Positions 3,042 to 57,874 of a stretch of 64,000 bases of DNA are shown one piece after another (the first letter of the stretch is position 1; every line of letters starts with the position of its first letter). The DNA comes from Pyrinomonadaceae bacterium (GTDB lineage Bacteria > Acidobacteriota > Blastocatellia > Pyrinomonadales > Pyrinomonadaceae). The notes under the pieces were generated by a model. It was not told the DNA's origin. It made no database searches and saw only the letters and a list, made by a program, of their open reading frames with translations. The position numbers and the translations under genes are program-made. The DNA lies in the NCBI GenBank assembly GCA_045807745.1, contig JBJMGT010000015.1, forward strand, positions 197,948-261,947, read 5' to 3'.

Positions 3042-3580
3042 CGACTGAAGTTGCGGCGGACAAATTGAGTTGGCACAGTCTTCCGCCTGATTTGCGAACC
3101 GCGCTCGCGGGCCGGCTCGCCGGTCTCTGGGGCGCGCCGACGGACGAAGCCTCGTTCGATAGTCTCGCCGTAGACAAGCAACAAGCGTTGCTACTCCTCT
3201 TGCGGCGCATGCTGCAACTGGATTTATGGTTGGTGGTGCGCAAGGTAACGAACATCTATGGCGAGGGCGGCGTCGGGATGGCCTTTGACGCATGGCCTGT
3301 GGTCGTTGCCACGCTTACGCGCCGTCGAGACTTTACCCGCCGCTTCGCCAACCATCGCAACACGACCGGCGGTTTCTACGAACGCGGGCGCGGCACAGGT
3401 GTGTTACATTTTCTGTACGTGGACAAGCCGGGTGAGGCGCGCGCGTGGCAGGTGCATTTCGATCTCTACAGTCCTGTCTATTCGCCCCTGAGCGTGCTGC
3501 GCCATCTCCGGCACGAGTTTATCGCTAAGTACACGCCCGACTGGCGCGCCATCACAACTGCTTTGCGCGACACGGCCTAA
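3038..3580 (+). CDS. hypothetical protein (DUF) in the ligase operon
   Basis: 180 aa ORF. Its ATG overlaps the PilZ stop (ATGA), indicating translational coupling. No recognisable motif. Confidence 0.4.
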   Translation: MTTEVAADKLSWHSLPPDLRTALAGRLAGLWGAPTDEASFDSLAVDKQQALLLLLRRMLQLDLWLVVRKVTNIYGEGGVGMAFDAWPVVVATLTRRRDFTRRFANHRNTTGGFYERGRGTGVLHFLYVDKPGEARAWQVHFDLYSPVYSPLSVLRHLRHEFIAKYTPDWRAITTALRDTA

Positions 3581-3606
3581 ATTTTTCAGGCGCAGGTGAG
3601 AGAGTC

Positions 3607-4713
3607 ATGGAGCCATATACCCTCGGGATTGAAGAAGAATTCCAGATCGTCGATCCGCAGACACGCGAGCTGAAGTCGCACGTCTCGGAGATACTCGAAG
3701 AGGGCCGGATGATCCTCGGCGAGCAGGTCAAACCGGAGATGATCCAGGCGCAGATCGAGGTTGGCACGGGCATCTGCCGCGACATCGCAGAAGCGCGCAA
3801 GGACATCACGAACCTGCGCGCCATCGTCTCGTCGCTCGCGCGCAAGAATGGGCTGAACATCGTCGCGGCTTCGACTCATCCGATCTCACAGTGGCGCGAT
3901 CAGGTGATTTACGACGACCCGCATTACACGCTGCTCATCGAAGAGTTGCAGATGGTCGCGCGCTCGCTGCTCATCTTCGGGCTGCACGTACACGTCGGCA
4001 TCCCCGACCGCGAGCGGCAAATCCACATCATGAATGCGGCGCGCTACTTTCTGCCGCACGTGCTGGCGCTGACCACTTCGTCGCCCTTCTGGCTCGGCAT
4101 CAACTCGGGGCTGAAATCTTATCGCTCGGAAGTCTTCAAGAAGTTCCCGCGCACGGACATCCCCGACCACTTCGACTCCTACGTCTCGTTTCAACGCTAC
4201 ATCGATCTGCTGCTCAAAACGAACTCGATCAGCGGGCCGAAAAAAATCTGGTGGGACGTGCGCCCGCACCCGTTCTTCCCGACACTTGAATTCCGCGTCT
4301 GCGACATCCCGACGCGGGTGGACGACACGGTCGCCATCGCCGCGCTCTTTCAAGCCATCGTCTGCAAACTCGACCGGCTGATCGATAAGAATCTCGGCTT
4401 CCGCCTCTATCGCCGCATGTTGATTCAGGAGAACAAGTGGCGCGCGGTACGCTACGGGCTGGACGGGAAGATGCTCGACCTCGGCAAGCAGAAGGAAGTG
4501 CCCACAGTCGACCTCATCCGCGAGTTGCTCGACTTCGTGGACGACGTGCTCGACGATCTCGGCTCGCGCTCAGAGATTGAGCACATCCACACGATCTTGG
4601 CGCGCGGCACATCCGCCGATGAGCAGTTGCGCGTGTTCAAGGAGACGAACGACCTGAAAGCGGTGGTCGATAGACTGATCGAACTGACGGTCGAGCACGT
4701 GCCGTCGCTCTAA
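3607..4713 (+). CDS. ybdK: carboxylate-amine ligase of the YbdK / GCS2 family (glutamate-cysteine ligase family 2)
   Basis: The N-terminus LGIEEEFQIVD and overall length (368 aa) are characteristic of the YbdK/GCS2 family. It is last in the operon and followed by a strong terminator. Confidence 0.75.
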   Translation: MEPYTLGIEEEFQIVDPQTRELKSHVSEILEEGRMILGEQVKPEMIQAQIEVGTGICRDIAEARKDITNLRAIVSSLARKNGLNIVAASTHPISQWRDQVIYDDPHYTLLIEELQMVARSLLIFGLHVHVGIPDRERQIHIMNAARYFLPHVLALTTSSPFWLGINSGLKSYRSEVFKKFPRTDIPDHFDSYVSFQRYIDLLLKTNSISGPKKIWWDVRPHPFFPTLEFRVCDIPTRVDDTVAIAALFQAIVCKLDRLIDKNLGFRLYRRMLIQENKWRAVRYGLDGKMLDLGKQKEVPTVDLIRELLDFVDDVLDDLGSRSEIEHIHTILARGTSADEQLRVFKETNDLKAVVDRLIELTVEHVPSL

Positions 4714-33431: not shown

Positions 33432-36400
33432 ATGAATATCAAGCATCGCGCGCGAAGACTGTTGGTTCTCGCCCTGTTTTTGGCGAGCGTGCCGTTTTTT
33501 CTCTCTACGCCTAACGTGCCGAAGGCGGACGAGAACCTCGTAGCAAGGGCTGCGGCTACCCTTCTCTCTTCCACGTCATTTACCTCAGATGCCCCGACCA
33601 AGGCGTGGCAGGAGAATCAGAAGCACGGACAAGATGCGCGGCAGAACTCCGCCGATGATGGCGCTGCTGCGGCACGAGTCAGAGATGCACGCAAGGGGCT
33701 GGTGCGGCTTCGAGGCGAGGTGCCGGCCGCGCTCGCCAGTGCCGAGAGACTTCACGGAGCCGCGCGCGACGACAGCCCTCTGGCACTCACCGTCGTGCTC
33801 GACCGGACTGACCAACAGGGCTTCGAGGCCTTCCTGCGCGGTGTGCAAGACTCGCAGTCGCCAACGTACCGTCACTATCTCAGCCCGCGCGAACAGGCCC
33901 GTCGCTTCGGGCCGAGTCCGCAGGCTTATGATGCGGTGCTCGCGTGGCTTCGGCGGAAGGGTTTCAGGCTGTTGGAAGGCTCTGCGAACCGGCTGACGCT
34001 GACCGTGCGTGCGACGCGGGCGCGCGCACAGCAGGCGTTCGGCGTAGAGATCGGCGATTACCAGATCGGTAACAGAACTTTTTACGCCAACGACCGTGAT
34101 CCCGTCGTGCCAGAACAGATCGCCCCATACGTCCAAGCGGTCATTGGCCTCTCGAACTTGGCGGAGCCGGGGGCGAGCGATGAAGAAGTAAACTCCGGCT
34201 ACTGCTCGGCGTATGCGGAGGCCGGGGCCCCCAACGACCCGACCTACCAAGGCTGTTTGCTACGACATCCGTCGATTTGTTTCGAGGGAGAATGTGTGTC
34301 CCAGTGTGACATATTGCTGCATGATATTAAAAAAAATCTCTTCCAAGCTTGCATGAAAAATCATGGGCAAGGGCCGTCTAGCGGCGGAAATGGCCCGAAC
34401 TCCGGTGGCTCGAACTCCTCTTCTTTCTCGGCCCCACAACTGCTCCCGGCACAAGCGGCAGCCGCTCTGCGCTGGCTCGACGTGAATGGCACGGGCCAGA
34501 CCGTTGGCCTGCTGGAGTTCGACACCTTCAACCGCAATGACATCCGCGACTATCTCGCGCTCGCCGGTTACCCGTCGTCGGACATCAACCGCTTGAGCCA
34601 AGTGCATGTTAACGGCGGCGCACCGCTGGGGGCGGAAGAGTCCGAGGTGTTAATTGACATCATCGCCGTGATGGTCAACGCGCGCGGCGCGAATGTAGTC
34701 GTCTATGATGCCCCGTTCACCGGCAATAGCACGAACTTCCAAGCGCTCTTCAATCGGATGATCGGCGACGGCGTTACGGTCATCAGTAATAGCTGGTCGT
34801 ACTGTGAGGATCAGACGACGTTGGCCGACGCGCAGAGTCTTGACGCAATCCTTGCCAGCGCCGCGGCTGCCGGCATCAGCGTCTTTAACGGCAGCGGCGA
34901 CAGCGGTAGCACTTGCCTCGACGGCAGCGCCAACACGATTGGCGTCCCGGCCGATTCACCACACGCGACGGCCGTCGGAGGCACATCGTTAATATTGGGG
35001 CCCGCCCTGACCTATGGTCATGAGACCGCGTGGCTCGGACTGGGCAATATCCCTCCCACCGGGCAAGGCGGCTTCGGCGTCAGCCGGTTCTTCAGCCGGC
35101 CGACTTATCAGAATGGATTCAACAGCTCCCCTATGCGGTCGATACCGGACGTCGGCGTCAACGCCGATCCCGCGAACGGCATCGAAATCTGTCAGGCGGA
35201 CGCAGGCGGCTGCCCGACGGGTTTACGCTACGGCGGCACGAGTTTGTCGGCTCCACTCTGGGCTGCGTTTGCGGCCCTGCTGAATCAGGCGCAAGGGCAG
35301 AATCTCGGCCAGCTTAATCCTTTACTGTACCCGCTCGGCAACACCGACGCCTTCCACTCGGCGACGAGCATGGGCAGCGACTTCCAGCACGTCGGACTCG
35401 GCTCACCGAATCTGAATCTGATGCACCGTACGTTGAGCGGCAAGACGGTTGGGGGCGTGAGTTCCTCGGTCTCCGAGATCAGCGCGGAGCCGCTTAACGT
35501 GGTGGCTGACGGCACTGCGGAATCGTTCGTTGTCGTGCGGCTGCGGGACGCGGATGGGCACACCGTGAGCGGCAAAACGGTGACGCTCGCGGCGGGCGCG
35601 GGCGCGCACGCAACGATTACCCCGGCCAGCGGCGTGTCCAACGTCTCGAACGGCGCGGTCATCTTCTCGCTCAAGGACACAGTCCCAGAGATAGTGACCT
35701 TCACGGCCACGGACACGACAGACAGCGTCGTCTTGCAGAAACAGGTGCAGGTCGCTTTCGTCGCGCGGCCCGCGACGGCCGGCGGCATCAGCGCCAGCCC
35801 ATCAACCGTCAACGCGAACGGCAGCGACATGACGACGATCACGGTGACGTTGCAGGACGCGAACGGCAATCCGTCGCCGGGCAAGGTGGTCAACCTCTCG
35901 CAAGGCAACGGCGCTTCCATCATCACGACGACCACGGCGACCACGGACGCGACGGGCAAGGTGCAGTTCACGGCTGTCTCGAATAAAGCTGAGACCGTGA
36001 CCTACACCGCGGTTGACGTCACCGACCGCAATCTGCCGATTCCGGGCAGCGCCATTGTCAATTTCGTCAACGCTTCAGGTTTCTGCGGCAGGAATGAAGT
36101 TGGTACGGCCGCCCCCGGCTACAGCGTCTCGACCTTTGCGAGCAACTTCCCGCTAGATTGCTTCTCGCCCAAGGCCCCCATCGGTCTCGCCTTTGACGCC
36201 AACGGCAACCTGTTTGTCGGTGACGTTAATAACAACAGCATCTACAGCTTCGGGCCGCAGGGTGGCATCGCCGGCCCGGCGACGCTGGTCGTGACAGTTC
36301 CATCATCGTTCGGCGCGAGCCTTGCTGGGCTGACTTTCGCGAAAGACGGCCGACTCTACGCGGGCCTGAACAATGGCAGCAACATAGTTGAAGTGAATCC

Positions 36401-38753
36401 GGCTACGGGCGCGGTCATTCGCGTCGTCGCTACCCTGCCGGATGGCCCGCTAGACCTGCATGTGGACCCACTGAGCGGAGACCTCTTCGTCTCGGTTTTC
36501 GGCGGCATCTATCGCATCACGAACTTCAATAATGGTCCCGGCACAGTGACGCTTTATTTTCAAGGCGGTTTTATTGATGGATTTGTCTTCGCCCCCGACG
36601 GCACGATCTATCTGAAGGGCGGCACCGAAGGCATCTTCCGCGTGACCGGCACTAACACGCAGAATCCCGGAACGGCGACGCAACTCGCATTCGTTGTCGG
36701 CGGCCCTGACGGCATCGCACTTGAGCAGAACCCGGCCAACCCGGCCAAACCGTTCCTCTACGTGAACCGCAACGACGGCATCATCACGCGGATTGACACA
36801 AGCGCTTTGCCGCCGAACGCGATCAATTGTAATGACGCGGGCGCACCATGCACAAACATCTACACGGGCGGCTCGCGCGGCGATTTCGTCACGGTTGGCC
36901 CGAGCGGCTGCCTCTACGCGACGCAGAGTGACCGGGTCATCAGAGTCACTAAAGCCGACGGGACGTGCAGTCTCTCGCCCACGAACCCCGCCCCGCAGAT
37001 CGTGCTCACGCCTGAAAGCGTGCAGCCTTCGCCGGTGCAAGGCACGACCGTGACCTTGACGGCCACGGTGAAGAACGTCGCCAATCCTGCGGGCATACCG
37101 GTCACCCTGTTCGTGAATGGGGCCAACCCGAGTGCCCATCTGGTCAGAACAGACACGAACGGGAACGTCACCTTCACTTACACCGGGGTCTCGACCGGCA
37201 CGGATCAGTCCTTCGCGGCTGCCGACCTCGGCGGCTCGACGATCTTCTCAAATGACGCGAAGGTGACATGGACACCGGGCAAGCACAGCACGTTCCTGAG
37301 CGTGAATCTAAGCCCGACGAGTGGCACTGTGAATAGACCGCTGACGCTCGCCGCCACGCTCGCTGACATCTCGACCGCGCCCATAGATAAGGTCGGTGGG
37401 GTTCCGCTCAACTTCTCGCTCGCGGGCCAAATCTGCACGGGCACGACTGATGCCAACGGGACGGCCGCCTGTACGATAACGCCTAACGTCGCGGCCGGCT
37501 CCTATCAACTCGAAGTAACTTTCGCGGGGACGAGCGCGCTGTTGGCCAGTTCCGCGAAGAAGACTGTTGACCTGATAGAGACGCCGGTCGTCCTGCCTGC
37601 CATTCGGTTCAGCAACGCTAACTACCAAGTCGGTGAGGGCGACGGGCGCGTAGTGGTTACAGTCAATCGAAGCGGCGACACCTCCGGTGCTGTCTCGGTG
37701 GGCTACCAGACGTTGGATACTGACGCGTTCAGATTCGGGTGTGCAGATACGGTGAATAATCAGGGCGGGGCATACGGGCGCTGCGACTACGCCACCGTGG
37801 TCGGTACGCTAAACTTTGCGGCAGGTGAGACCAGCAAGAACATCACCGTGCCCATCATTGACGACGTGTACGTCGAAGGCAACGAGACATTCCAGATCAC
37901 ACTCGCTAACGCCGTCGCCGCGACCTTAGGAACGCCCGCGAACGCCACCGTCACCATCACAGACAACGACACGGCCGCCGGTGCGCCCAACCCGATCTTC
38001 CGCGGGGACTTCTTCGTCCGCCAGCACTACCTCGACTTCCTCTCACGCGAGCCGGAGGCGGCTGGGCTGGCGGCATGGCTCAACGTCTTGAACAACTGTC
38101 CGGACGTAAACAACACCGACCCGAACAGCCCTTCGGCAACTTGCGACCGCATCCTCGTCTCGCAGTCCTTCTTCGGCTCGCCGGAGTTCCAACTGAAGGG
38201 CACGTTCGTCTTCCGCTTCTACCGGCTGGCATTCAACCGCTTGCCGCGCTACAGCGAGATCGTCTTTGACATGAGCGCGGTGACGGGGCGGACGGCCGCC
38301 GACACCTTCGCGCGCAAGGCGGCCTTCACCGACTCGTTCGCCCAGCGGCAGGAGTTCACCGCCGCCTATGGTGGCCTGTCGAATACTGACTACGTGAATG
38401 CGCTGCTAGGCCGTTACGGGCTGACGCAGATCACTTGCCCCGACCCGGCCGCGCCCGACGGCATGGCGAAGGTGACGCTCACGACGAGCGAGCTGACGGG
38501 CCAACTCAACGCCGGCACGCTGACGCGGGCGCAGGTGCTCAGGGCCGTAGCCGACAGCGATCAAGTAGGCGCGGCGGAGTTCACCCGCGCCTTCGTTGCC
38601 GCCGAGTACTACGGGTATCTGCGGCGCACACCCGACACACCCGGCTACAATGCGTGGCTCAATTACCTGACCACACATCCGACCGATGCGCGCACGATGG
38701 TCAACGGCTTCTTGAACTCCCAAGAGTACAAGTTGAGGTTCGGGCCACCGTAA
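33432..38753 (+). CDS. giant secreted multidomain S53 (sedolisin / kumamolisin-like) peptidase with Big, NHL-like, Calx-beta and DUF4214 modules
   Basis: Signal peptide. Pro-kumamolisin activation-like segment (LTVVLDRTDQQGFEAFLRGVQD...). S53 catalytic Ser motif GGTSLSAPLWAA. Repeated Ig-like domains. NHL-like LAFDANGNLFVGD. A Calx-beta-like block (GTLNFAAGETSKNITVPIIDD). DUF4214-like C-terminus (FVRQHYLDFLSREPEAAGLAAW). Confidence 0.7.
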   Translation: MNIKHRARRLLVLALFLASVPFFLSTPNVPKADENLVARAAATLLSSTSFTSDAPTKAWQENQKHGQDARQNSADDGAAAARVRDARKGLVRLRGEVPAALASAERLHGAARDDSPLALTVVLDRTDQQGFEAFLRGVQDSQSPTYRHYLSPREQARRFGPSPQAYDAVLAWLRRKGFRLLEGSANRLTLTVRATRARAQQAFGVEIGDYQIGNRTFYANDRDPVVPEQIAPYVQAVIGLSNLAEPGASDEEVNSGYCSAYAEAGAPNDPTYQGCLLRHPSICFEGECVSQCDILLHDIKKNLFQACMKNHGQGPSSGGNGPNSGGSNSSSFSAPQLLPAQAAAALRWLDVNGTGQTVGLLEFDTFNRNDIRDYLALAGYPSSDINRLSQVHVNGGAPLGAEESEVLIDIIAVMVNARGANVVVYDAPFTGNSTNFQALFNRMIGDGVTVISNSWSYCEDQTTLADAQSLDAILASAAAAGISVFNGSGDSGSTCLDGSANTIGVPADSPHATAVGGTSLILGPALTYGHETAWLGLGNIPPTGQGGFGVSRFFSRPTYQNGFNSSPMRSIPDVGVNADPANGIEICQADAGGCPTGLRYGGTSLSAPLWAAFAALLNQAQGQNLGQLNPLLYPLGNTDAFHSATSMGSDFQHVGLGSPNLNLMHRTLSGKTVGGVSSSVSEISAEPLNVVADGTAESFVVVRLRDADGHTVSGKTVTLAAGAGAHATITPASGVSNVSNGAVIFSLKDTVPEIVTFTATDTTDSVVLQKQVQVAFVARPATAGGISASPSTVNANGSDMTTITVTLQDANGNPSPGKVVNLSQGNGASIITTTTATTDATGKVQFTAVSNKAETVTYTAVDVTDRNLPIPGSAIVNFVNASGFCGRNEVGTAAPGYSVSTFASNFPLDCFSPKAPIGLAFDANGNLFVGDVNNNSIYSFGPQGGIAGPATLVVTVPSSFGASLAGLTFAKDGRLYAGLNNGSNIVEVNPATGAVIRVVATLPDGPLDLHVDPLSGDLFVSVFGGIYRITNFNNGPGTVTLYFQGGFIDGFVFAPDGTIYLKGGTEGIFRVTGTNTQNPGTATQLAFVVGGPDGIALEQNPANPAKPFLYVNRNDGIITRIDTSALPPNAINCNDAGAPCTNIYTGGSRGDFVTVGPSGCLYATQSDRVIRVTKADGTCSLSPTNPAPQIVLTPESVQPSPVQGTTVTLTATVKNVANPAGIPVTLFVNGANPSAHLVRTDTNGNVTFTYTGVSTGTDQSFAAADLGGSTIFSNDAKVTWTPGKHSTFLSVNLSPTSGTVNRPLTLAATLADISTAPIDKVGGVPLNFSLAGQICTGTTDANGTAACTITPNVAAGSYQLEVTFAGTSALLASSAKKTVDLIETPVVLPAIRFSNANYQVGEGDGRVVVTVNRSGDTSGAVSVGYQTLDTDAFRFGCADTVNNQGGAYGRCDYATVVGTLNFAAGETSKNITVPIIDDVYVEGNETFQITLANAVAATLGTPANATVTITDNDTAAGAPNPIFRGDFFVRQHYLDFLSREPEAAGLAAWLNVLNNCPDVNNTDPNSPSATCDRILVSQSFFGSPEFQLKGTFVFRFYRLAFNRLPRYSEIVFDMSAVTGRTAADTFARKAAFTDSFAQRQEFTAAYGGLSNTDYVNALLGRYGLTQITCPDPAAPDGMAKVTLTTSELTGQLNAGTLTRAQVLRAVADSDQVGAAEFTRAFVAAEYYGYLRRTPDTPGYNAWLNYLTTHPTDARTMVNGFLNSQEYKLRFGPP

Positions 38754-38780: not shown

Positions 38781-38822
38781 CGAAAAGAGCAACAGGGGCC
38801 CGCGTTATAGCCCAACGCGGGC
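38781..38822 (-). terminator. terminator hairpin overlapping the stop of the CadC-like gene
   Basis: GGCCCGCGTT-atagccc-AACGCGGGCC, followed on the minus strand by a CTTTTCG U-run. Confidence 0.4.
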
Positions 38823-40784
38823 CGCGAGTTGGGCGAAACGCTGGTCGGCGCGCAGCGGGTTGAGCAGGGGGTCAAATTTCAGATCGGCGATGTTGGGCGA
38901 GTGTTCGCGGTAAGCCTGTTCGAGGCAGGCGAACGCACGGTCGCGGTCGCCGAGTTGCGCATAAGGCCACGCGAGTTCGTAGGTCGGGACGTAGTCGTGC
39001 CGCGCCCGCTCTAAGTTTAGTTCAAGCCACTTCTGCCAGAAGCCCCGCAGTCCCGCGCCCCGGTACGCTTCCGTGAGCGCATCCGTCGCTGCGGGCGGGT
39101 CGCCGTTGAGCATCGCCGTCCGCACGTACTCCGCGAACGCCTCCGCGTCCGCACCCTGCATCTGAAGGGCCCGCGCCAAATCCCAGTGCGCGTTCGCGCG
39201 ATTCGGGTCCATCTCGACGGCGTGCCGCAAGGCCGCCGCCGCCTCATCGTAGCGGCGCGCATAGAGCAGTACCTCGCCCACGTCCACGTTCATCACGACA
39301 GAGAGCGGATCAAGCGCGCGCGCCTGTTGCATCTCTGCGATGGCCCTGTCCGCCTGCCCGGTCAGCAGCAGGGCGTAGGCGTAATCGTGATGCACCTCGA
39401 CGTTGCCCGGATCAAGCTCCAGCGCGCGCTCGACCTCACGAGCACCGTCCGCCCAAGCCCACTCCAACCGATACGCGCCCGCCAGCGACAGGTGCGCCTC
39501 CGCCAGTCCTTCATCGAGCGCCACCGCCCGCTGCGCCGCCGCCTTCGCTTTCGCCGTCGCCTCCTGCGGCGGCAGAGACAGAAACCAGACGCCCATGTTG
39601 TAGTAGTCGGCCACGCCCGCATAAGCTTGGGCGTAGTTCGGATCGTGTCTGAGCGCCGCTTGGAAATAGCTGAGCGACTGGTTCAGATCGGCCTTCGTCC
39701 GCTTGTACCAATGGTAGCGACCTTTCAGATAAGCCTCATAAGCCTCGACGCTGTCGGTGCGACGCGCGGTCAGTCGCCGCTCCTCGTCTGCGCTTAGCTT
39801 GTACTCAAGCCCGCCGATGACGTTGCGTGTGATCTCGTCTTGCAGCGCGAAGATGTCGCCCAGCTTGCGGTCGTAAGGCGCGCCCGCCCACAGGACGCGC
39901 CCGTCCTCCGTGCTCATCAGCCGCACCTCGACGCGCAGGCGTTCGCCCTCCTTGAACACGCCGCCTTGCAGCAACGTCGCTACTTTGAGTCGCTGGCCCA
40001 GTTCGCGCGGGTCTGCATCGGCCGCTTTGAGACTGAAAGCGGAGCCGCGCGCGATCACCTTCAAGCCGTTGATCTTTGAGAGCGCGTTGATCAAGTTCTC
40101 CGTGATGCCGTCGCACAGGTAGTCGTTCGCCGCGTCGTTCGTCAAGTTCTTCAGCGGCAGCACCGCAACGGAGGAAAGCGGGGCGGCCGCTTCGGTCTTG
40201 CGCGCCGCTGTCGGCACGGCCCGCCCGCGATGAACGATCAACGCGGCCGCAACCACACCCAGCGTGAGGATGCCCGCAAGCAAAGCGAGCGTGCGCAGAT
40301 GCAGCTTCGTGGGCCGAGCGCTGGGCGGTGTAGGAATAGACTGTAGCGCTTCACGCTCGCTGGCGGCCGGCTCTGCTGGTAACTCTGCGGCGGAGCCGAA
40401 GTCCGACGCTTCGTGTGTCGCCGCTGTCTCGCGTGGCTGCGGCGCACACTGAATCATCAGCTCGGCGAAAGGGCCAACGTAGCGATAGCCGTAGCCCCAA
40501 CGCGTCTCGATAAAACGTGGCTCGCCCGAACTATCATCGAGCGCCTTACGCAAAACAGCTACGCATTTGCGCACCGTGTCGTCGTACACATCCTTTCCGT
40601 GCCAGAACTGTTCCAACAGTTCCGCCGTGTTGACAAAGCGATCCCGATGTTCGATCAGGTAGAGCAGAACCAGAAAAGGTTTTTTGGCCAAGTGAACTTG
40701 CTGCTCGCCTGCAAGCAACAGTTGTCTGTCCGGCTCCAACCGGTGTTCCCCCAGCATGTAGGTTTTACTGAGATTGGCCGTCAT
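38805..40784 (-). CDS. CadC/ToxR-like transmembrane winged-helix transcriptional regulator with TolB-N-like and TPR domains
   Basis: N-terminal OmpR/PhoB-type wHTH ([10 protein letters not shown]...RWGYGYRY). A single TM ([19 protein letters not shown]). A periplasmic TolB-N-like segment ([27 protein letters not shown]), then TPR repeats. Start placed at MTANLSK (40784). Confidence 0.65.
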
Positions 40785-40933
40785 ACGCTCTGCTCTGGCC
40801 AGCGCTGCCGCTGTTCCGTCCGTGGTCTGTCTGCGCGTTAATATACTTGATTGGAACGGAATTTGGGGAGGATGCGCCCGCGCGATTTGATTTTCGTCCG
40901 GCGCGTTGTAAAGTTGCGGCGCAAACAGACTCA

Positions 40934-41734
40934 ATGATTACTATGTCCACAGTCGCAACAGCTACTACAGACACGTTCGAGATCGCTGGCCGCGTGTTCA
41001 CGTCGCGCTTGATCATCGGCACGGGAAAGTACCGCAGCTTTGCAGAGATGAAGGCGGCGCATCGCGCGTCGGGCGCGGAGATGGTGACGGTCGCCGTGCG
41101 GCGTGTGCCGCTTGACCGCAGCAGCGAATCATTTCTCGATCATCTTGACCCGGCGCTGGCCATTCTGCCCAACACGGCCGGCTGTTACACGGCCGAAGAC
41201 GCCGTCCGCACCGCGCGGCTTGCGCGCGAAGCGCTCAACACCAATTGGATCAAGCTCGAAGTGATCGGGGATCAGACGACGCTCTTTCCCGACAATGAAC
41301 AGACGCTCGCCGCCGCGCGCACGCTCGTCAGCGAGGGCTTTATTGTGCTGCCGTACTTCAGCGACGATCTGATCATGGCGAAGAAACTGCTCGCCGCAGG
41401 TTGTCCCGCCGTCATGCCGCTGGCCGCGCCCATCGGCTCAGGTCTGGGCGTACAGAATCCGGCGAATCTGGCCATCATGCGTGAGCAACTGCCTGATGCG
41501 ACGATCATCGTCGATGCTGGCGTCGGCACGGCCAGCGACGCTGCAATTGCGATGGAGTTGGGCGCGGACGCCATTCTCATGAACACCGCGATTGCCGAAG
41601 CACGGAACGCCACGCAGATGGCCAACGCCATGCGCCTCGCCATCGAAGCGGGGCGCATGGCTTATATGGCAGGCCGGATGCCGAAGCGTCTTTATGCAAG
41701 CGCGTCGAGTCCACTTGAGGGCGTCATTCGCTGA
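40934..41734 (+). CDS. thiG: thiazole synthase
   Basis: [19 protein letters not shown]...and a conserved ThiG TIM-barrel body. Start taken at MITMST (40934). Confidence 0.85.
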
Positions 41735-49500: not shown

Positions 49501-49833
49501 GGCTGACGCTCCAGTTTCCGTCGGGCGCGTGTTTGAGGACGCGGCCGTGAAGAGTTAGATCAAACGAAAGTTGTTAGTCGTCTGTAATGCTGGTTCGTTG
49601 GAAAACGTTTGCTGTCTGCGCGCGATGGTTTGAACAAGTGCATAAGCAGGATGAGGAAACCTAATCGGCGCAAGTGCCCGCGAGGTGGGCGCATTCTACA
49701 CCTTCAGGCCAGAATGGCAAGGAAAATTTTTCCACCACCCGCAAGAATTTTTGCTATAGTGCCCGCGCACACTACACCTGTGCCGCCGCGAGACTCCTCA
49801 CGGCCACTTGAAACTAAGGAAAAACACGCTGTC

Positions 49834-50046
49834 CTAGAACCGGGTCAGCACTTGCAGTAGGTTCAGCTCGATCTCTGTCAGCATGTTTGACGCTCCGGTC
49901 CAGATAATGCCGCTCGTTGACGGCGGTGGCGGTGGCGGTGGCGATGCCACCCCTGTCCAGATGATCCCGTCATCGGCAAATGCTGAAGGCGTAAGTATGA
50001 GCACCAGTACAAATGTTGCCAGAGCTTTTCGGCAGTTCTTCTTCAT
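49834..50046 (-). CDS. small secreted peptide precursor with two GIIWTG repeats flanking a poly-Pro tract
   Basis: Start placed at MKKNCRK (ATG 50046), preceded by GAGAGAGG SD. Sec signal MKKNCRKALATFVLVLILTPSAFA. Predicted mature ~46 aa: DDGIIWTGVASPPPPPPPSTSGIIWTGASNMLTEIELNLLQVLTRF. Local GC ~40% versus ~64% background. Confidence 0.45.
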   Translation of the reverse strand: MKKNCRKALATFVLVLILTPSAFADDGIIWTGVASPPPPPPPSTSGIIWTGASNMLTEIELNLLQVLTRF

Positions 50047-50162
50047 CTTGATTCCTCTCTCTTGAGGTGGTTCAGTGAAACCAGAGCTATCTGGTTTAAT
50101 TCGCGCCTTATCTGCTTGATAAGACGTAGCTTTGCCATGCTTGAAATAATTTTGCAAGCACA

Positions 50163-52103
50163 ATGAAAGGCAACCCTCACATGGAATTAACTAATACATT
50201 ATTGAGGCAATTAGACGATCCTACCTTGACCTATAATGAGCAAGCGCGCCTGCGCTGCTCTCTGGCAGAGGTTTTAGAGCAAGGGGGGCAGTATGAGGCC
50301 GCACGCGACGCGCTCGGAGAACTGTGGCAAGGCATAGGCCAGCGCCCGAATGTCGAAGAGTTAACAGACATGGTAGCCGCAGAATTAATCTTGCGCGCTG
50401 GCTCATTGTCCGGGTGGCTTGGTAGCATCCGGCAGATTGAAGGAGCACAGGAGACGGCGAAAGATTTAATCAGCGAAGGTATCAGTCGCTTCCACACTTT
50501 AGGTGAACCCATAGGAGCAGCTACCGCGCAGTGTGAGTTAGGCTACTGCTATTGGCGAGAGGGCGCATATGACGAGGCACGCGTGATCTACGCCGATGCT
50601 TTAGAGAAAATACCTGATAACAATAATTCAGACCTCAGAGCAAAAATATTAGTACGTAGTGCAATCGTTGAATCATGCAGTGGCCGGCATAACGATGCGC
50701 TTCGTATTCTGACGGACGCAAAGTCATTATTTGTAGCGAGCGATAATCACTCATTAGTAGGTAAATTCCATAATGATCTCGGCAGTGTGCTTACGATATT
50801 AGGCGAGACTGAGCACCGCCCCGATTACATCGACCAAGCAATTCTTGAATATACGGCCGCAGCATATCATTTTGAGGAAGCAGGGCATACAGGCTACCGC
50901 GCGAGTGCTGAAAACAACTTAGGGTTTTTGCTTTACACCATCGGCCGTTATGAGGACTCCCGCCAGCATCTGCATCACGCGCGACGGTTGTTTGCTAGTG
51001 TGAACGATAGCGGCCGGATCGCACAGGTCGATGATGTGCTCGCGCGTGTATTACTGGCTGAGGGCAAACCGCGGATCGCGGCGAGGGTGATCGGTGCGGC
51101 GGTGCGGGCGCTGTCTAAGGGCGGGGAGCAGGGTTTGCTCGCAGAAGCGCTCACGACGCAGGGGCGCGTGCTGGCGCGGCTCAATGATTCAGCCGCGTCG
51201 CAGGACAAGTTTCGCCAAGCGGCTGATCTGGCGGAGCAGGCGGGCGCGGTCGAGGATGCCGGGCGCGCGCTGCTGGCGCTGATCGAGGAGCATGGGGAAT
51301 GGCTTGCAGAGCCGGAGTTGGTGGCCGCATACGAGCGCGCAGATGAATTGCTCAAAGCGACTCAGGACGCGGAGACTATCGCGCGGCTGCGGGCTTGTGC
51401 CCACCGCTTAGTCGCGGCGCGTCGCGTCGCCCTCCCGGCCGAAGTGAAGCGTAGGCGCGCGGACTTCTGGAGCAATTTCTCCCTGCCCAAACGAGTCCGA
51501 GCTTATGAAGCCAGATACATCCGCCGCGCGCTGCTTGAGGCTGGGGGTAGTGTGAGTCGCGCGGCCCGGCTGCTCGGTTTCAAACATCACGCCTCGTTGG
51601 TGGCTTTATTGCAAAGACGGCACAAGAGTCTAGCACATCTGCGCACGACGCCGGAGAAAAGAAAGCAAAGTATTATCCGCCTGCGCGGCCCGCGGCACAC
51701 GCCTGACGTGCGGGCGAAGCTGCCTCTGCGCGTGCGCGCCATCCTACACGTAGAAGACAATCAGTTAGTGGCCGACTTAGTGCGCGATGTATTTGAACTG
51801 GAAGGTTGGCAGGTCAAGACGTTGGTTGAAGGCACACAAGCTTTGAGCCTGTTGGCCGGTAAAGCGCACTTCGACCTGCTGCTGCTTGATAATGATCTGC
51901 CGGGTCTCGGCGGCCTGGAACTCATACGCGAAGTGCGCCGACTCGCCCATCGCCAGCACGTACCGATTATCATGCTGTCCGCCGATGATGTTAAGGCATT
52001 AGCGGAGCGGGCCGGCGCGGACGTGTTTTTACGTAAGCCCGAAGATATTCCTGTGCTCTGCCAGACCGTCCGCCGTCTATTAGACGCGGCCGGCGATGCT
52101 TAG
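50163..52103 (+). CDS. TPR-repeat / Fis-type HTH / C-terminal receiver-domain regulatory protein
   Basis: ~400 aa of TPR-like helical repeats. Fis-family HTH (RAYEARYIRRALLEAGGSVSRAARLLGF). A C-terminal REC domain (ILHVEDNQLVADLV...LLLLDNDLPGLGG...VPIIMLSADD...FLRKP). The likely start is the second ATG at 50181 (MELTN). Mosaic GC content. Confidence 0.6.
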   Translation: MKGNPHMELTNTLLRQLDDPTLTYNEQARLRCSLAEVLEQGGQYEAARDALGELWQGIGQRPNVEELTDMVAAELILRAGSLSGWLGSIRQIEGAQETAKDLISEGISRFHTLGEPIGAATAQCELGYCYWREGAYDEARVIYADALEKIPDNNNSDLRAKILVRSAIVESCSGRHNDALRILTDAKSLFVASDNHSLVGKFHNDLGSVLTILGETEHRPDYIDQAILEYTAAAYHFEEAGHTGYRASAENNLGFLLYTIGRYEDSRQHLHHARRLFASVNDSGRIAQVDDVLARVLLAEGKPRIAARVIGAAVRALSKGGEQGLLAEALTTQGRVLARLNDSAASQDKFRQAADLAEQAGAVEDAGRALLALIEEHGEWLAEPELVAAYERADELLKATQDAETIARLRACAHRLVAARRVALPAEVKRRRADFWSNFSLPKRVRAYEARYIRRALLEAGGSVSRAARLLGFKHHASLVALLQRRHKSLAHLRTTPEKRKQSIIRLRGPRHTPDVRAKLPLRVRAILHVEDNQLVADLVRDVFELEGWQVKTLVEGTQALSLLAGKAHFDLLLLDNDLPGLGGLELIREVRRLAHRQHVPIIMLSADDVKALAERAGADVFLRKPEDIPVLCQTVRRLLDAAGDA

Positions 52104-55268: not shown

Positions 55269-55666
55269 TGCGCTGAATTCATTTCAATTTCCCTTCATTC
55301 AGCTTAATTGGAAAGCTGAATTCTGAACTGAACCACAAGGAAATTGGCGAAACCTTATGAGGATTTCGTCAGCGGAGTTTGCGAGATAGGCTGCTTATAC
55401 GCTCGTCGTATTCTGACGTCAAGACTACCTTTTCGTGCATTGCGGACTTATTCGCAACAGGTACTCTATCAACGCAGAAATCGACGCGCCGCCTTAAGAA
55501 CAATTTAGATGAAACACTTGCCTTACCTTGACAGATACAATCGAATTTTGGCTGAATGCTACCGTTAGTTCACCGAACTCTTCCTAGCACGTCCTGCTGT
55601 TCCATGCTTGCGCGCTTGATGCGCGCGCGCCTGACTGCCGCGCTTAATCTGATTGGAGAAACGATT

Positions 55667-57874
55667 GTGCGTAACTCAAGTCTGCTGTTGAAACTAGCCC
55701 TTGTCCTGCTCGTCATCTGCCCGGCGGCGCTCGCACAGGAGCGTTTGCTGACGATTGAAGACATTTACGATCCTGTGAAGAAGGTTGACTTCAGCGGCAC
55801 GCCCGTCAACCCGCGCTGGCTGAAAGATGGCGTCAACTATCTACAGACCAATCCGCCCAACTCCGGCAAGCCGCGCATACTGAAGGTCAACGCGCTGACG
55901 GGCGCGAGCGTGCCATTTTTTGACGCGGCCAAGATGGAAGCAGCGTTTGCCGCCATGCCGGGTCTGAGCGCGCAGGACGCGAAGCGGCTGGCGAATCAAG
56001 GGGTCTATCAAATGAACCCGGCGCAGACGGCCTTTCTCCTCAATCAAGCTAACGATCTCTTCTATTACGAACTTGCCAGCGATAAGGCTGAGCGTCTAAC
56101 GAACAATAAAGATGAAGAGGTCGGCGAGGCGTTTAGTCCCGACGGGCGGATGGTGAGTTTCGTGCGCGGCGGTAATCTCTTTATCCTTGATCTCGGCAGC
56201 AAAAAAGAGCGCAGGTTGACGAGCGACGGCGGCCCGAAAATGTTCAACGGGCGGCTCGATTGGGTCTATCAGGAAGAGGTCTACGGGCGCGGCAACTTCG
56301 AGGCTTACTGGTGGAGTCCCGATTCGACGCGGCTCGCGTTCCTGCGGCTCGACGAGAACCCTGTGCCGAGTTTCACCGTCGTCGATCACATCCCGCTCCA
56401 TCAAGAGTTGGAAGTGACGCCTTATCCAAAGGCCGGCGATCCGAATCCGCTCGTGCGGCTGGGCGTCGCTAATGTGACAGGGGGCGATGTGCGTTGGGTG
56501 GATACGGCGCAGTACAAGCCGGTTGATCTGCTCATCGTCCGCGTCGGGTGGACGCCGGACGGTAAACACGTGGCCTATCAAGCACAGAATCGTGAGCAGA
56601 CGTTTCTCGATCTGAACTTCGCTGATCCAAACGACGGCAAGTCGCAAAATGTCTTGCATGAAACGTCGAAGGCGTGGGTTGAAGTGACGGACGATAATCC
56701 GCGCTGGCTCAAAGACGGCTCGTTTCTGTGGCTCAGCGACCGCACCGGCTTCAAGCACATCTATCACTACGCGCCCGACGGCAAGCTGCTGCACACGGTC
56801 ACCAACGGGCGCTGGGACGTGCGCTCAATCGACGGCGTGGACGAGGCTAAGGGGCTAATCTATTTCAGCGGCACGGAGCACAGCGCCATCGCCAATCAAG
56901 CTTATCGCGTCAAACTCGACGGCACGGGGCAGACGCGTCTGACGCAAGCCGAGGGCAGTCATCGCCTCAGCTTTAATTCAACGCTGACGCACTTCGTGGA
57001 CTCATGGAGCGACATCAACACGCCGACGCAAGTGCGCCTTAACAACGCAGACGGCACACTCGCGCGTGTGCTCGACGAGAACAAGGTCGCGGCGCTCGGA
57101 GCATACCGACTCGGCCAGACGGAGTTCGTGCAGGTAAAGACGCGCGACGGCTTCACGATGGACGCGATGATGATCAAGCCGCCCGATTTCGATCCGGCGA
57201 AAAAGTATCCGGTCTTCGAGTTCACCTATTCAGGGCCGCAAGCGCCGCAGGTACGCAACGCGTGGGGCGGGCAGACCTACATGTGGCATCAGTTACTCGC
57301 ACAGAAGGGCTACATCATCTGGATTTGCGACAACCGCACGGCGTCGAACAAGGGCGTCGAATCCGCTTGGCCGCTCTACAGCAATTTCGGTGAGTTGGAG
57401 CTGCGCGATCTGGAAGACGGCATTACGTGGCTCAAGAGCCAACCCTACGTGGACGGCACACGCATAGGTCTCTGGGGTTGGAGTTACGGCGGCTTCATGA
57501 CCTCATACGCGCTGACGCACAGCCAGAGTTTTAAGCTGGGCATCGCCGGCGGCACGGTCAGCGACTGGCACGACTACGACTCGATCTACACAGAGCGCTA
57601 CATGCGCACGCCGCAGAACAACCCCGAAGGCTATCGCAAATCTTCGCCGCGCTATGCCGCCAAAGACCTGCACGGCAAGCTGCTCTTAATTCACGGCGCG
57701 ATGGACGATAACGTGCACGTGCAGAACACCATCCAGTTCGCTTATGAGCTACAGAAGGCGGACAAGGAGTTTCAGTTGATGCTTTACCCTAAGTCGCGGC
57801 ACGGTGTCACAGACCCGCTACTCGTCAGACACATGCGCCAGATGATGACCGACTTCGTACTCCAGAATCTTTAA
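55667..57874 (+). CDS. S9B family dipeptidyl-peptidase IV-like serine peptidase (beta-propeller plus prolyl-oligopeptidase domain), secreted
   Basis: GTG start at 55667, preceded by GGAGAAA SD and followed by a signal peptide (LLLKLALVLLVICPAALAQ). A DPP-IV-like N-terminal propeller. Catalytic GWSYGG and downstream Asp/His regions. Confidence 0.8.
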   Translation: MRNSSLLLKLALVLLVICPAALAQERLLTIEDIYDPVKKVDFSGTPVNPRWLKDGVNYLQTNPPNSGKPRILKVNALTGASVPFFDAAKMEAAFAAMPGLSAQDAKRLANQGVYQMNPAQTAFLLNQANDLFYYELASDKAERLTNNKDEEVGEAFSPDGRMVSFVRGGNLFILDLGSKKERRLTSDGGPKMFNGRLDWVYQEEVYGRGNFEAYWWSPDSTRLAFLRLDENPVPSFTVVDHIPLHQELEVTPYPKAGDPNPLVRLGVANVTGGDVRWVDTAQYKPVDLLIVRVGWTPDGKHVAYQAQNREQTFLDLNFADPNDGKSQNVLHETSKAWVEVTDDNPRWLKDGSFLWLSDRTGFKHIYHYAPDGKLLHTVTNGRWDVRSIDGVDEAKGLIYFSGTEHSAIANQAYRVKLDGTGQTRLTQAEGSHRLSFNSTLTHFVDSWSDINTPTQVRLNNADGTLARVLDENKVAALGAYRLGQTEFVQVKTRDGFTMDAMMIKPPDFDPAKKYPVFEFTYSGPQAPQVRNAWGGQTYMWHQLLAQKGYIIWICDNRTASNKGVESAWPLYSNFGELELRDLEDGITWLKSQPYVDGTRIGLWGWSYGGFMTSYALTHSQSFKLGIAGGTVSDWHDYDSIYTERYMRTPQNNPEGYRKSSPRYAAKDLHGKLLLIHGAMDDNVHVQNTIQFAYELQKADKEFQLMLYPKSRHGVTDPLLVRHMRQMMTDFVLQNL

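Follow-up and report, generated by a model that had tools for sequence, protein, structure and literature searches.

The DNA analysed here is a stretch of 64,000 nucleotides (the window, to which all positions below refer unless a locus is named) from a Pyrinomonadaceae bacterium of the phylum Acidobacteriota (NCBI GenBank assembly GCA_045807745.1, contig JBJMGT010000015.1, positions 197,948 to 261,947 of the forward strand). It harbours a compact cassette of two divergently oriented genes, namely a gene for a small precursor peptide of 70 amino acids (aa) with a putative signal peptide and two copies of the hexamer GIIWTG, and a gene for a regulator that combines TPR repeats with a Fis-type helix-turn-helix (HTH) and a C-terminal receiver domain (REC). 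This pair occurs with fixed geometry throughout a large family of loci. Its hexamers are under selection at the protein level and diversify between paralogues, and they co-vary with one particular part of the TPR region. We suggest that the cassette may be a peptide-signalling unit in which a secreted pro-peptide is read by its own regulator. The positions of all features are compiled in Table 1.

The product of the peptide gene reads MKKNCRKALATFVLVLILTPSAFA up to the predicted cleavage site and continues as DDGIIWTG-VAS-P7-STS-GIIWTG-ASNMLTEIELNLLQVLTRF, where the second unit is followed by ASNM and then by the tail LTEIELNLLQVLTRF. A preliminary description made from the letters of the window alone had proposed just such a 70 aa Sec-type precursor with two GIIWTG units around Pro7, and both the open reading frame (ORF) and its design could be confirmed. 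An identical protein from a Pyrinomonadaceae metagenome-assembled genome (MAG) is already on record with the annotation hypothetical. No Pfam or NCBIfam model matches the peptide family. A profile search returned 1077 proteins with E≤1 in one collection and 1564 representatives of 50%-identity clusters with E≤0.001 in a second one. Peptides located beside regulators comprise 58-91 aa, and the range among profile matches in the sequence collections is 51-180 aa. In typical members a signal peptide precedes two to three copies of the motif G-[IVLME]-[IML]-[WHYQ]-T-[GDE], which are accompanied by a spacer rich in Pro, by an acidic stretch and by the tail LTEIALxLLQxxxxLL. Read from sequence, n-, h- and c-regions are clear and conserved in the family, as is an AxA-type site; Ala24 is retained in at least 90% of the aligned peptides and a small-x-small site lies 0-3 residues ahead of the first hexamer unit in 111 of 112 of them.

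For the regulator, the NCBI annotation comprises only 438 aa (P0007), which is 68% of the ORF. Because the full ORF aligns end to end with its homologues (56-80% identity), the deposited start is probably wrong. The longest ORF of 646 aa, which had been taken as the gene in the preliminary description, opens with ATG 50163 and has no ribosome-binding site there, whereas ATG 50181 is preceded by the site GAAAGG and corresponds to the position at which all homologues begin (MELTNTLL...). For both reasons 50181 is probably the true start, giving a protein of 640 aa and a spacer of 134 nt that is the norm of the family. The domains of the earlier assignment are retained in full. Pfam detects TPR_12 (2.8e-18, four stretches, besides other TPR models), Response_reg (9.5e-19) and, slightly above the cut-off of 22 bits, HTH_8 (7.7e-5, 22.8 bits). 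The receiver also has PDB sequence matches to CheY and OmpR-type receivers. Its residues E525/D526, D570, S600 and K619-P620 are conserved in 47 homologues, so that the acidic pocket, the phospho-acceptor Asp, the Thr/Ser and the Lys of two-component receivers are all present by sequence; the C-terminal position of the domain is atypical. In the AlphaFold2 (AF2) model (pLDDT 86.6) a solenoid (residues 1-417) and the HTH (435-487) are followed by a disordered linker (492-516) and the REC (520-639). Foldseek places the TPR domains of LGN/Pins, APPBP2 and Rap, which bind extended peptides, among the best matches of the solenoid; the five Rap chains listed reach TM-scores of 0.59-0.68 (normalised by target length), and sequence identity at these fold matches is 11-17% overall and 11-14% for Rap. 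Judged from its sequence, the regulator is a cytoplasmic protein with TPR repeats, Fis-type HTH and receiver. The objection that the TPR gene could be truncated or decayed, which had been named in advance as one of the cases against the pairing, does not apply to a protein that is full length, aligns end to end and is modelled confidently.

Table 1. Features of the peptide-regulator cassette and of the adjoining giant gene in the window.
Feature	Position	Strand	Basis and remarks
Pre-pro-peptide gene	49834-50046	minus	ORF with ribosome-binding site GAGAGGA 7 nt upstream of ATG; 70 aa
Sec-type signal peptide, residues 1-24 (putative)	49975-50046	minus	Read from sequence: basic n-region, 12 hydrophobic residues, SAFA before predicted cut
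Hexamer unit 1 GIIWTG, residues 27-32	49951-49968	minus	2 residues from predicted mature N-terminus
Pro7 spacer, residues 36-42	49921-49941	minus	Pro-rich spacer throughout family
Hexamer unit 2 GIIWTG, residues 46-51	49894-49911	minus	Identical to unit 1 in protein sequence
Conserved amphipathic C-terminal tail LTEIELNLLQVLTRF	49837-49881	minus	Family consensus LTEIALxLLQ(T/S)(L/V)...LL
Regulator gene	50181-52103	plus	Family-consistent start, 640 aa; longest ORF 50163-52103, 646 aa
TPR superhelix, residues 1-417, about 20 helices	50181-51431	plus	AF2 secondary structure; proposed peptide-binding domain
Fast-evolving TPR part, residues 81-280	50421-51020	plus	Column entropy; also low-GC stretch of preliminary description
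Fis/NtrC-type HTH, residues ~435-487, YEARYIRRAL...GSVSRAARLLGF	51483-51641	plus	HTH_8, family-invariant motif, AF2 helices
C-terminal receiver (REC)	51738-52097	plus	Response_reg; ED, Asp in LLLLDNDLPG, Ser/Thr, Lys-Pro
Divergent control region, 134 nt	50047-50180		Length and sequence conserved; both ribosome-binding sites, three palindromes
Palindrome IR3 AAACCAG-N6-CTGGTTT	50078-50097		About 30 nt upstream of peptide start; only perfect copy in window
Palindrome IR2 CTTATC-N5-GATAAG	50107-50123		Central in control region; candidate operator
Palindrome IR1 TGCTTG-N11-CAAGCA	50138-50160		20-45 nt upstream of regulator start codon
Conserved non-coding 3' element	49741-49833	minus	Directly 3' of peptide gene, about 95 nt
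GC-rich hairpin of 3' element	49785-49804	minus	U.G pair in stem kept in 36/42 sequences on peptide strand
Invariant GGCGGC of 3' element	49782-49787	minus	Family alignment
GTGTG of 3' element	49768-49772	minus	Family alignment
TATA-like box CTATAGCAA of 3' element	49751-49759	minus	TATAGT when read on other strand
Giant gene, 2572 aa	41782-49500	minus	LTD x5, Big_2 x9, PD40 (Pfam); TTG start
Sigma-70-like promoter TTGCCA-16-TAGAAT	49720-49693	minus	About 190 nt upstream of giant gene

The regulator belongs to a large family. Among 8000 candidates scored at least 3067 relatives were found with E≤1e-10, and nearly every one that bears an organism name is assigned to Acidobacteria or Pyrinomonadaceae. 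The best 120 of these 3067 are 56-100% identical to the copy in the window and nearly all are full length (633-709 aa), with two shorter calls of 438 and 480 aa. For analysis of the neighbourhood two sets were compiled, one genome per species giving 71 loci and metagenome contigs giving 61 loci. Small ORFs of the same peptide family, divergently oriented, accompany the regulator at 65 of 66 evaluable genome loci and at 44 of 45 evaluable metagenome loci, all of them from Pyrinomonadaceae or Acidobacteriota. Co-occurrence of the two genes had been put forward in the preliminary description as one way to check their pairing, and with 109 of 111 evaluable regulator loci it is nearly complete. Both exceptions are disturbed loci: at L030 (3450-4100) stop codons or frameshifts are found in the peptide gene and in the regulator gene alike, reflecting either joint decay of the pair or an assembly error, and at L131 an IS630-like transposase is inserted upstream. 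Such conservation far exceeds what a chance origin of the peptide ORF could account for, as far as comparison of sequences goes.

Two forms of the regulator can be distinguished, a long one of 635-651 aa with REC and a short one of 491 aa that ends after the HTH; several truncated regulators of the long clade are also devoid of REC. The peptide is kept by all forms including those without REC. Cassettes can be multiplied in a genome, with at least five in one MAG. Two of these five are found at locus L001 (7947-14728; GCA_020199775.1, JAIVJZ010000040), where a fragment of a tyrosine integrase lies in the 4.5 kb that separate them; the regulator of the second cassette has no receiver, and its peptide shows GIIHTE at the place where the first one has GIIWTG. 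Clustering of the neighbouring ORFs of 69 loci revealed the regulator as the only shared neighbour of the peptide. Other neighbours are restricted to subsets, including integrases (9 loci), Ser/Thr kinases (7) and VWA proteins (7). The integrases are tyrosine integrases within 4 kb of the cassette, and from this proximity duplication or mobility of some cassettes is possible. Comparison of family loci revealed neither terminal repeats nor a conserved block after the stop codon of the regulator. Altogether, these comparisons support the view that peptide and TPR-HTH-REC regulator form a conserved functional pair.

Further evidence comes from the evolution of the hexamers. Of 79 distinct long-form peptides 68 contain at least two hexamer copies. 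Copies within one peptide share 2.91 of the 5 variable positions, compared with 1.96 between peptides, and fully identical pairs account for 26% within and 1.8% between peptides; none of 2000 permutations reached the observed mean. Thirty-six peptides contain an exact repeat of at least five residues and in 31 of them the copies show 1-5 synonymous differences. In the window, too, the two units differ in 4 of 18 nucleotides and every change is synonymous. Since repeat copies differ synonymously, hexamer identity is apparently maintained at the protein level and not by recent duplication. Regulators that are still 85-88% identical are accompanied by peptides in which both copies have changed together (for example GVIYTD twice versus GIMWTD twice, and GIIWTE twice versus GAIWME twice). 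Among paralogues of one genome the hexamer differs and the tail is nearly the same.

On the side of the regulator, column entropy of 21 close relatives is concentrated in residues 81-280, with low variability in the HTH and most of the receiver and with variable last ~20 receiver residues. The relation between both partners was analysed with partial Mantel tests on 54 pairs, in which distances in TPR residues 81-280 and in residues 300-620 were each controlled for the other. The hexamers, located by heuristic motif finding, follow residues 81-280 (partial r 0.40, p=0.001) and not residues 300-620 (-0.04, not significant), whereas the peptide flanks behave in the opposite way: values for the signal peptide are 0.05 (not significant) and 0.60 (p=0.001) and those for the C-terminal tail -0.02 (not significant) and 0.48 (p=0.001), respectively. 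In sliding windows the partial correlation is positive across residues 81-280 only, peaks at 241-280 and is zero or negative for the REC. In the gene layout the hexamers are flanked by signal peptide and tail, and the codons of the signal peptide lie between the hexamers and the TPR-coding DNA. The fact that the signal peptide, although nearer to this DNA, does not track the TPR region argues against simple block recombination as the source of the pattern.

The DNA between the two start codons is itself a typical conserved region of the family. Of 67 long-form loci 61 have a spacer of 133-135 nt, most short-form loci have one of 117-121 nt, and mean column identity amounts to 77% over 66 loci. 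IR2 reads CCTATC...GATAGG in most paralogues, which is a compensated change (pair 63-78 is CG in 43 and TA in 18 cases). In the long-form alignment no G.U bias among the palindrome mismatches was found for either strand and RNAalifold predicts no structure. RNA stems thus receive no support and the long-form palindromes are read as candidate protein-binding sites for these reasons; for IR2 taken singly a DNA site seems as likely as an RNA stem. A sigma-54 promoter was considered for the control region and rejected, its spacing being off by one base in the alignment. In the short form, the control region contains an 11-bp hairpin of variable sequence with compensatory changes at all 11 pairs; here the data fit both an RNA/DNA hairpin and a paralogue-specific palindromic site and cannot separate them. 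Beside it a second hairpin, CCGTC...GACGG, is followed by T6 on the regulator strand and resembles a terminator or attenuator placed directly before the ribosome-binding site of the regulator. Both can be inspected in the intergenic regions of L048-L066 and L108-L125 (alignment A4), for example L056 3897-4015.

Directly behind the peptide gene a further non-coding element is conserved. About 88 loci carry its signature GGCGGC-N8-11-GTGTG at this position and on the strand of the peptide gene, nearly always once per locus, and it is hardly found elsewhere. The window contains two occurrences, one of them at this 3' element, and in L007 the element is found at the same position (3532-3656, minus strand). 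The version of the short form is longer (about 150 nt) and may fold further. No known RNA family was found, the 3' element having no match in Rfam. The element might terminate the peptide mRNA, act as an antisense promoter (the opposite strand reads TATAGT/TATATT), encode a small RNA or serve as a binding site. A general role as an outward promoter for an output gene was rejected, since co-oriented and opposite downstream genes number 39 and 34 among long-form loci and 5 and 18 among short-form loci.

The base composition of the locus had been described as atypical, with a GC drop across the peptide gene and the 5' part of the regulator. With a mean of 61% for the window, the drop is evident in the intergenic region (43%) and in regulator nucleotides 300-800 (48%) and does not extend to the peptide gene (55%). 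As 71 homologous loci show on average the same relative profile, the dip seems to be largely a trait of the family or of its amino-acid composition. It is therefore a weak sign of foreign origin or horizontal transfer.

The giant gene of the LTD type indeed lies on the same strand as the peptide gene and 333 bp behind its stop codon, as stated in the preliminary description. The further idea that the circuit controls this putative adhesin is not supported by comparison across the family. Only L003/L074, L004 and L027, all direct orthologues of the locus in the window, have a homologue of the giant gene 3' of the peptide, and across the family the gene downstream of the peptide is unrelated and co-oriented about as often as opposite. 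The giant gene has a sigma-70-like promoter of its own: between the 3' element and its start codon the sequence TTGCC-N16-17-TAGAAT is conserved in the window, L003 and L004, and in L027 a TAGAAT box is located further downstream according to the alignment. Upstream of the giant gene no palindrome similar to IR2 or IR3 was found, and other sites in the window are mismatched, distant and present in chance-level counts. With four orthologous loci only, its own promoter and no palindromes, the giant gene was rejected as a conserved target; control by this particular copy is possible but unsupported.

The surroundings show some further peculiarities. Directly downstream of the giant gene and on the same strand a 709-aa protein is encoded (38805-40934, minus) with a winged-helix Trans_reg_C domain and C-terminal TPRs, that is a second and unrelated TPR-type regulator. 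Another very large secreted or surface protein of 1773 aa is encoded nearby (33432-38753, plus); its domains comprise Big_1/Invasin_D3, Calx-beta, DUF4214 and an activation domain of the pro-kumamolisin (sedolisin) type. On the other side, 3.4 kb from the cassette, a gene of the DPP-IV/S9 prolyl-peptidase family is located (55556-57874, plus). S9-like proteins, recognised by look without a Pfam run, occur within about 5 kb of ten other cassettes (L007, L012, L013, L020, L026, L032, L033, L040, L051, L072). The peptides are Pro-rich, yet S9 peptidases near cassettes may merely reflect genomes rich in them.

How does this cassette relate to known systems? In the RRNPP signature a propeptide of 10-100 aa and a receptor of approximately 250-500 aa with TPRs are direct neighbours (Bernard et al. 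2023, PMC10075063). The peptide of the window (70 aa), the TPR receptor (TPR_12 in four stretches, modelled solenoid 1-417) and the adjacency (divergent with 134 nt between start codons, 109 of 111 loci) all agree with this signature, and Sec export of the propeptide is likely from its sequence. The size of the receptor does not agree, since the regulator of the window (640 aa) and the long form in general (635-651 aa) exceed the range and only the short form of 491 aa fits. Similarities to the RRNPP systems of Firmicutes, phages and plasmids (Rap, Rgg, NprR, PlcR, PrgX; AimR) include a propeptide gene that adjoins the gene of a TPR receptor, a cytoplasmic and usually DNA-binding receptor, a putative Sec-type propeptide signal, many paralogous pairs per genome with private peptide codes, a predicted TPR solenoid structurally similar to Rap and a divergent layout as in Rgg/SHP, TprA/PhrA and PrgX/PrgQ. 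By contrast, RRNPP receptors of 250-500 aa carry an N-terminal XRE-type HTH (or none) followed by TPRs, whereas here the order is TPR, Fis/NtrC-type HTH_8 and an extra REC within 640 aa (491 aa in the short form), and the host belongs to a Gram-negative phylum. Moreover, RRNPP precursors deliver a single and usually C-terminal peptide, while here the candidate for the specificity unit is an internal hexamer, two copies of which enclose a poly-Pro spacer. Pfam, NCBIfam and PDB gave no sequence match that would connect the regulator with Rap, Rgg, NprR, PlcR, PrgX or AimR, and the sole match to a known family outside the receiver is a weak hit of AfsR at the level of TPR repeats (NCBIfam, 46 bits against a cut-off of 1430). 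The preliminary description had compared the pair with RNPP peptide signalling. This comparison is sustained for the logic, by three features of the signature, the Rap-like fold and the co-variation, but not for family membership: on the sequence evidence the cassette is not an RNPP member, neither by homology nor by architecture.

Other comparisons lead less far. With NtrC-family enhancer-binding proteins (REC-AAA+-HTH_8) the regulator shares receiver and Fis-type HTH_8, but the order is TPR-HTH-REC and Pfam detects no Sigma54_activat or AAA domain, the region ahead of the HTH consisting entirely of TPR helices. The NCBIfam matches AtoC and LuxO cover only the receiver stretch (approximately 39 bits against cut-offs of 714 and 800), and an NtrC-type activator was ruled out for want of the AAA+ domain. 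An Agr/Com-type system was ruled out as well for want of a linked kinase or exporter; in the 69 loci, kinases, ABC exporters and proteases are not among the conserved neighbours of the cassette. A cluster for a ribosomally synthesized and post-translationally modified peptide (RiPP) was excluded because there is no linked maturase and the N-terminus resembles a Sec signal and not a RiPP leader. MalT/LAL and SARP/AfsR-type BTAD-TPR regulators likewise join a large TPR sensor to a DNA-binding domain, but here NB-ARC/STAND ATPase, BTAD and LuxR HTH are missing, and members of those families are not known to come with a secreted peptide of their own. The PrgX/PrgQ switch of the Enterococcus plasmid pCF10 has divergent and very close peptide and regulator genes, and in the cassette the conserved, structured non-coding DNA that flanks the peptide gene would leave room for overlapping or antisense transcripts; the proteins are unrelated in architecture and an antisense role of the 3' element is only a possibility. 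In the literature searched (peptide signalling in Pyrinomonadaceae and Acidobacteria, RRNPP outside Firmicutes, hexamer strings) no description of the cassette was found. The joint change of hexamers and TPR region suggests an undescribed kind of peptide/TPR-receptor pair in a Gram-negative phylum that is analogous to RRNPP in logic and has no detectable sequence relationship with it.

For the function of the cassette we propose that a self-contained unit of about 2.4 kb couples a secreted signalling pro-peptide to its own cytoplasmic TPR receptor/transcription factor, and we regard the chances of this proposal as evenly balanced. Export, processing, re-import, direct binding, DNA targets and autoregulation are the steps that we infer. 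The 70-aa precursor would be exported by Sec and cut after SAFA, exposing a pro-peptide of 46 aa with two GIIWTG words, a stiff polyproline spacer between them and an amphipathic tail; more trimming may follow. The hexamer would carry the specificity, and signal peptide and tail would serve tasks that all paralogues share, for example export, processing or handling. Either intact or after trimming by proteases, the peptide with its hexamers would be perceived by TPR residues ~81-280 of the adjacent regulator, most simply after re-import as in RRNPP systems. Binding would then alter the action of the Fis-type HTH on the palindromes of the 134-nt region, so that the pair might autoregulate. The receiver would add a second input via phosphorylation by an unlinked kinase and appears dispensable for the pairing, since REC-less forms keep the peptide.

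Several points weigh against this proposal. Acidobacteria have two membranes, and a peptide exported by Sec reaches only the periplasm. Neighbour clustering of the 69 loci revealed no linked exporter, protease or Opp-type importer. The presence of a receiver domain suggests that the circuit could take phosphorylation, and not peptide binding, as its input. The predicted fold matches of the TPR solenoid are generic, and tests of the Mantel type, from which the partial correlations of the hexamers were obtained, are liberal when sequences share ancestry. As the palindromes are conserved among paralogues, DNA targets would be common to the copies. The control region contains no recognisable canonical sigma-70 promoters, and the 3' element is left unexplained by the proposed circuit. 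Nevertheless, the idea of peptide signalling has been strengthened by several independent comparative tests, though it is still inferential.

Among the alternatives the one that survives best, though we consider it unlikely, sees the peptide as output: a regulator driven by its receiver and/or by another TPR ligand would switch on a small secreted effector with, for instance, an antimicrobial, surface-active or envelope function. Divergent regulator-target pairs are common, the receiver is canonical, no transporter or importer is linked and a mature peptide with amphipathic tail and hydrophobic units would suit such a role; even the fast diversification of the hexamers could reflect an arms race. 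What this explanation does not account for is that the hexamers track the TPR region, unlike the flanks of the same peptide, and that each paralogous regulator has a private peptide at fixed distance. Furthermore REC-less regulators keep the peptide, and neither immunity nor export genes are linked. Even for an effector it would have to be explained why the hexamer copies evolve in concert and why they co-vary with the regulator.

Considerably less probable is a two-component route, in which an unlinked histidine kinase would sense the peptide outside the cytoplasm and phosphorylate the receiver as in Agr/Com systems, leaving the TPRs for protein contacts. In its favour, the peptide would not have to be taken up again through two membranes, every phospho-acceptor residue is present in the receiver, and a hybrid kinase is encoded 9 kb from one of the L001 copies. 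No kinase is conserved near the cassette, however. The 491-aa short form and several truncated copies of the long clade lack the REC and yet keep peptide, spacing and 3' element, and it is in TPR residues 81-280 that co-variation is located, with zero or negative values for the REC. REC-less forms and TPR-mapped co-variation together speak against this route as the sole link.

Improbable to a similar or slightly higher degree is sensing inside the cell, where the TPRs would bind the unexported precursor and its hexamers would bridge a regulator dimer, so that the level of precursor or the Sec flux is reported in the manner of FlgM and other regulators that work by partner switching or are coupled to secretion. 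Co-variation of hexamers and TPR region would be explained without re-import, a rigid Pro spacer with the same unit on either side would fit a symmetric dimer, and the first unit is located right at the predicted cleavage site of the signal peptide. On the other hand the architecture is without precedent, the strongly conserved canonical signal peptide implies efficient export, and the idea is speculative. Finally, a spurious small ORF, or a locus that is a fragment in decay or of foreign origin, as the shortened NCBI call of 438 aa and the local GC dip might suggest, is hardly conceivable and is refuted by the conservation data, namely by more than 100 loci in which the ORF and its ribosome-binding site, together with signal peptide, repeats and tail, are conserved and vary synonymously, by more than 1000 peptide homologues, by a full-length and confidently modelled regulator and by a GC profile that is family-wide.

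Peptide signalling through cytoplasmic TPR receptors is regarded as a speciality of Gram-positive bacteria (Firmicutes), and RRNPP_detector and similar tools were built for Firmicute genomes (PMC10075063). The proposed circuit makes definite predictions, that is hexamer-specific binding to TPR residues ~81-280 and a function of IR1-IR3 as operators. If it is true, logic of the RRNPP type would extend to a dominant and poorly cultured soil phylum with more than 3000 receptors and about 1500 peptide clusters at 50% identity. This would include a new receptor architecture as well as a compact and apparently modular part of 2.4 kb (peptide, operator region, regulator) with many natural variants of specificity. 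In the widest sense, and here we are more doubtful than confident, Pyrinomonadaceae, which are abundant in soil, may use many orthogonal peptide channels of an origin independent from Firmicute RRNPP, and their peptide-pheromone receptors would be the first such family known from a Gram-negative phylum. In these channels bivalent pro-peptides, each with two identical hexamers on a polyproline rod, would be read by private TPR-Fis-HTH regulators that integrate a phosphorelay, with the 3' element and the palindrome-rich promoter as the switch.

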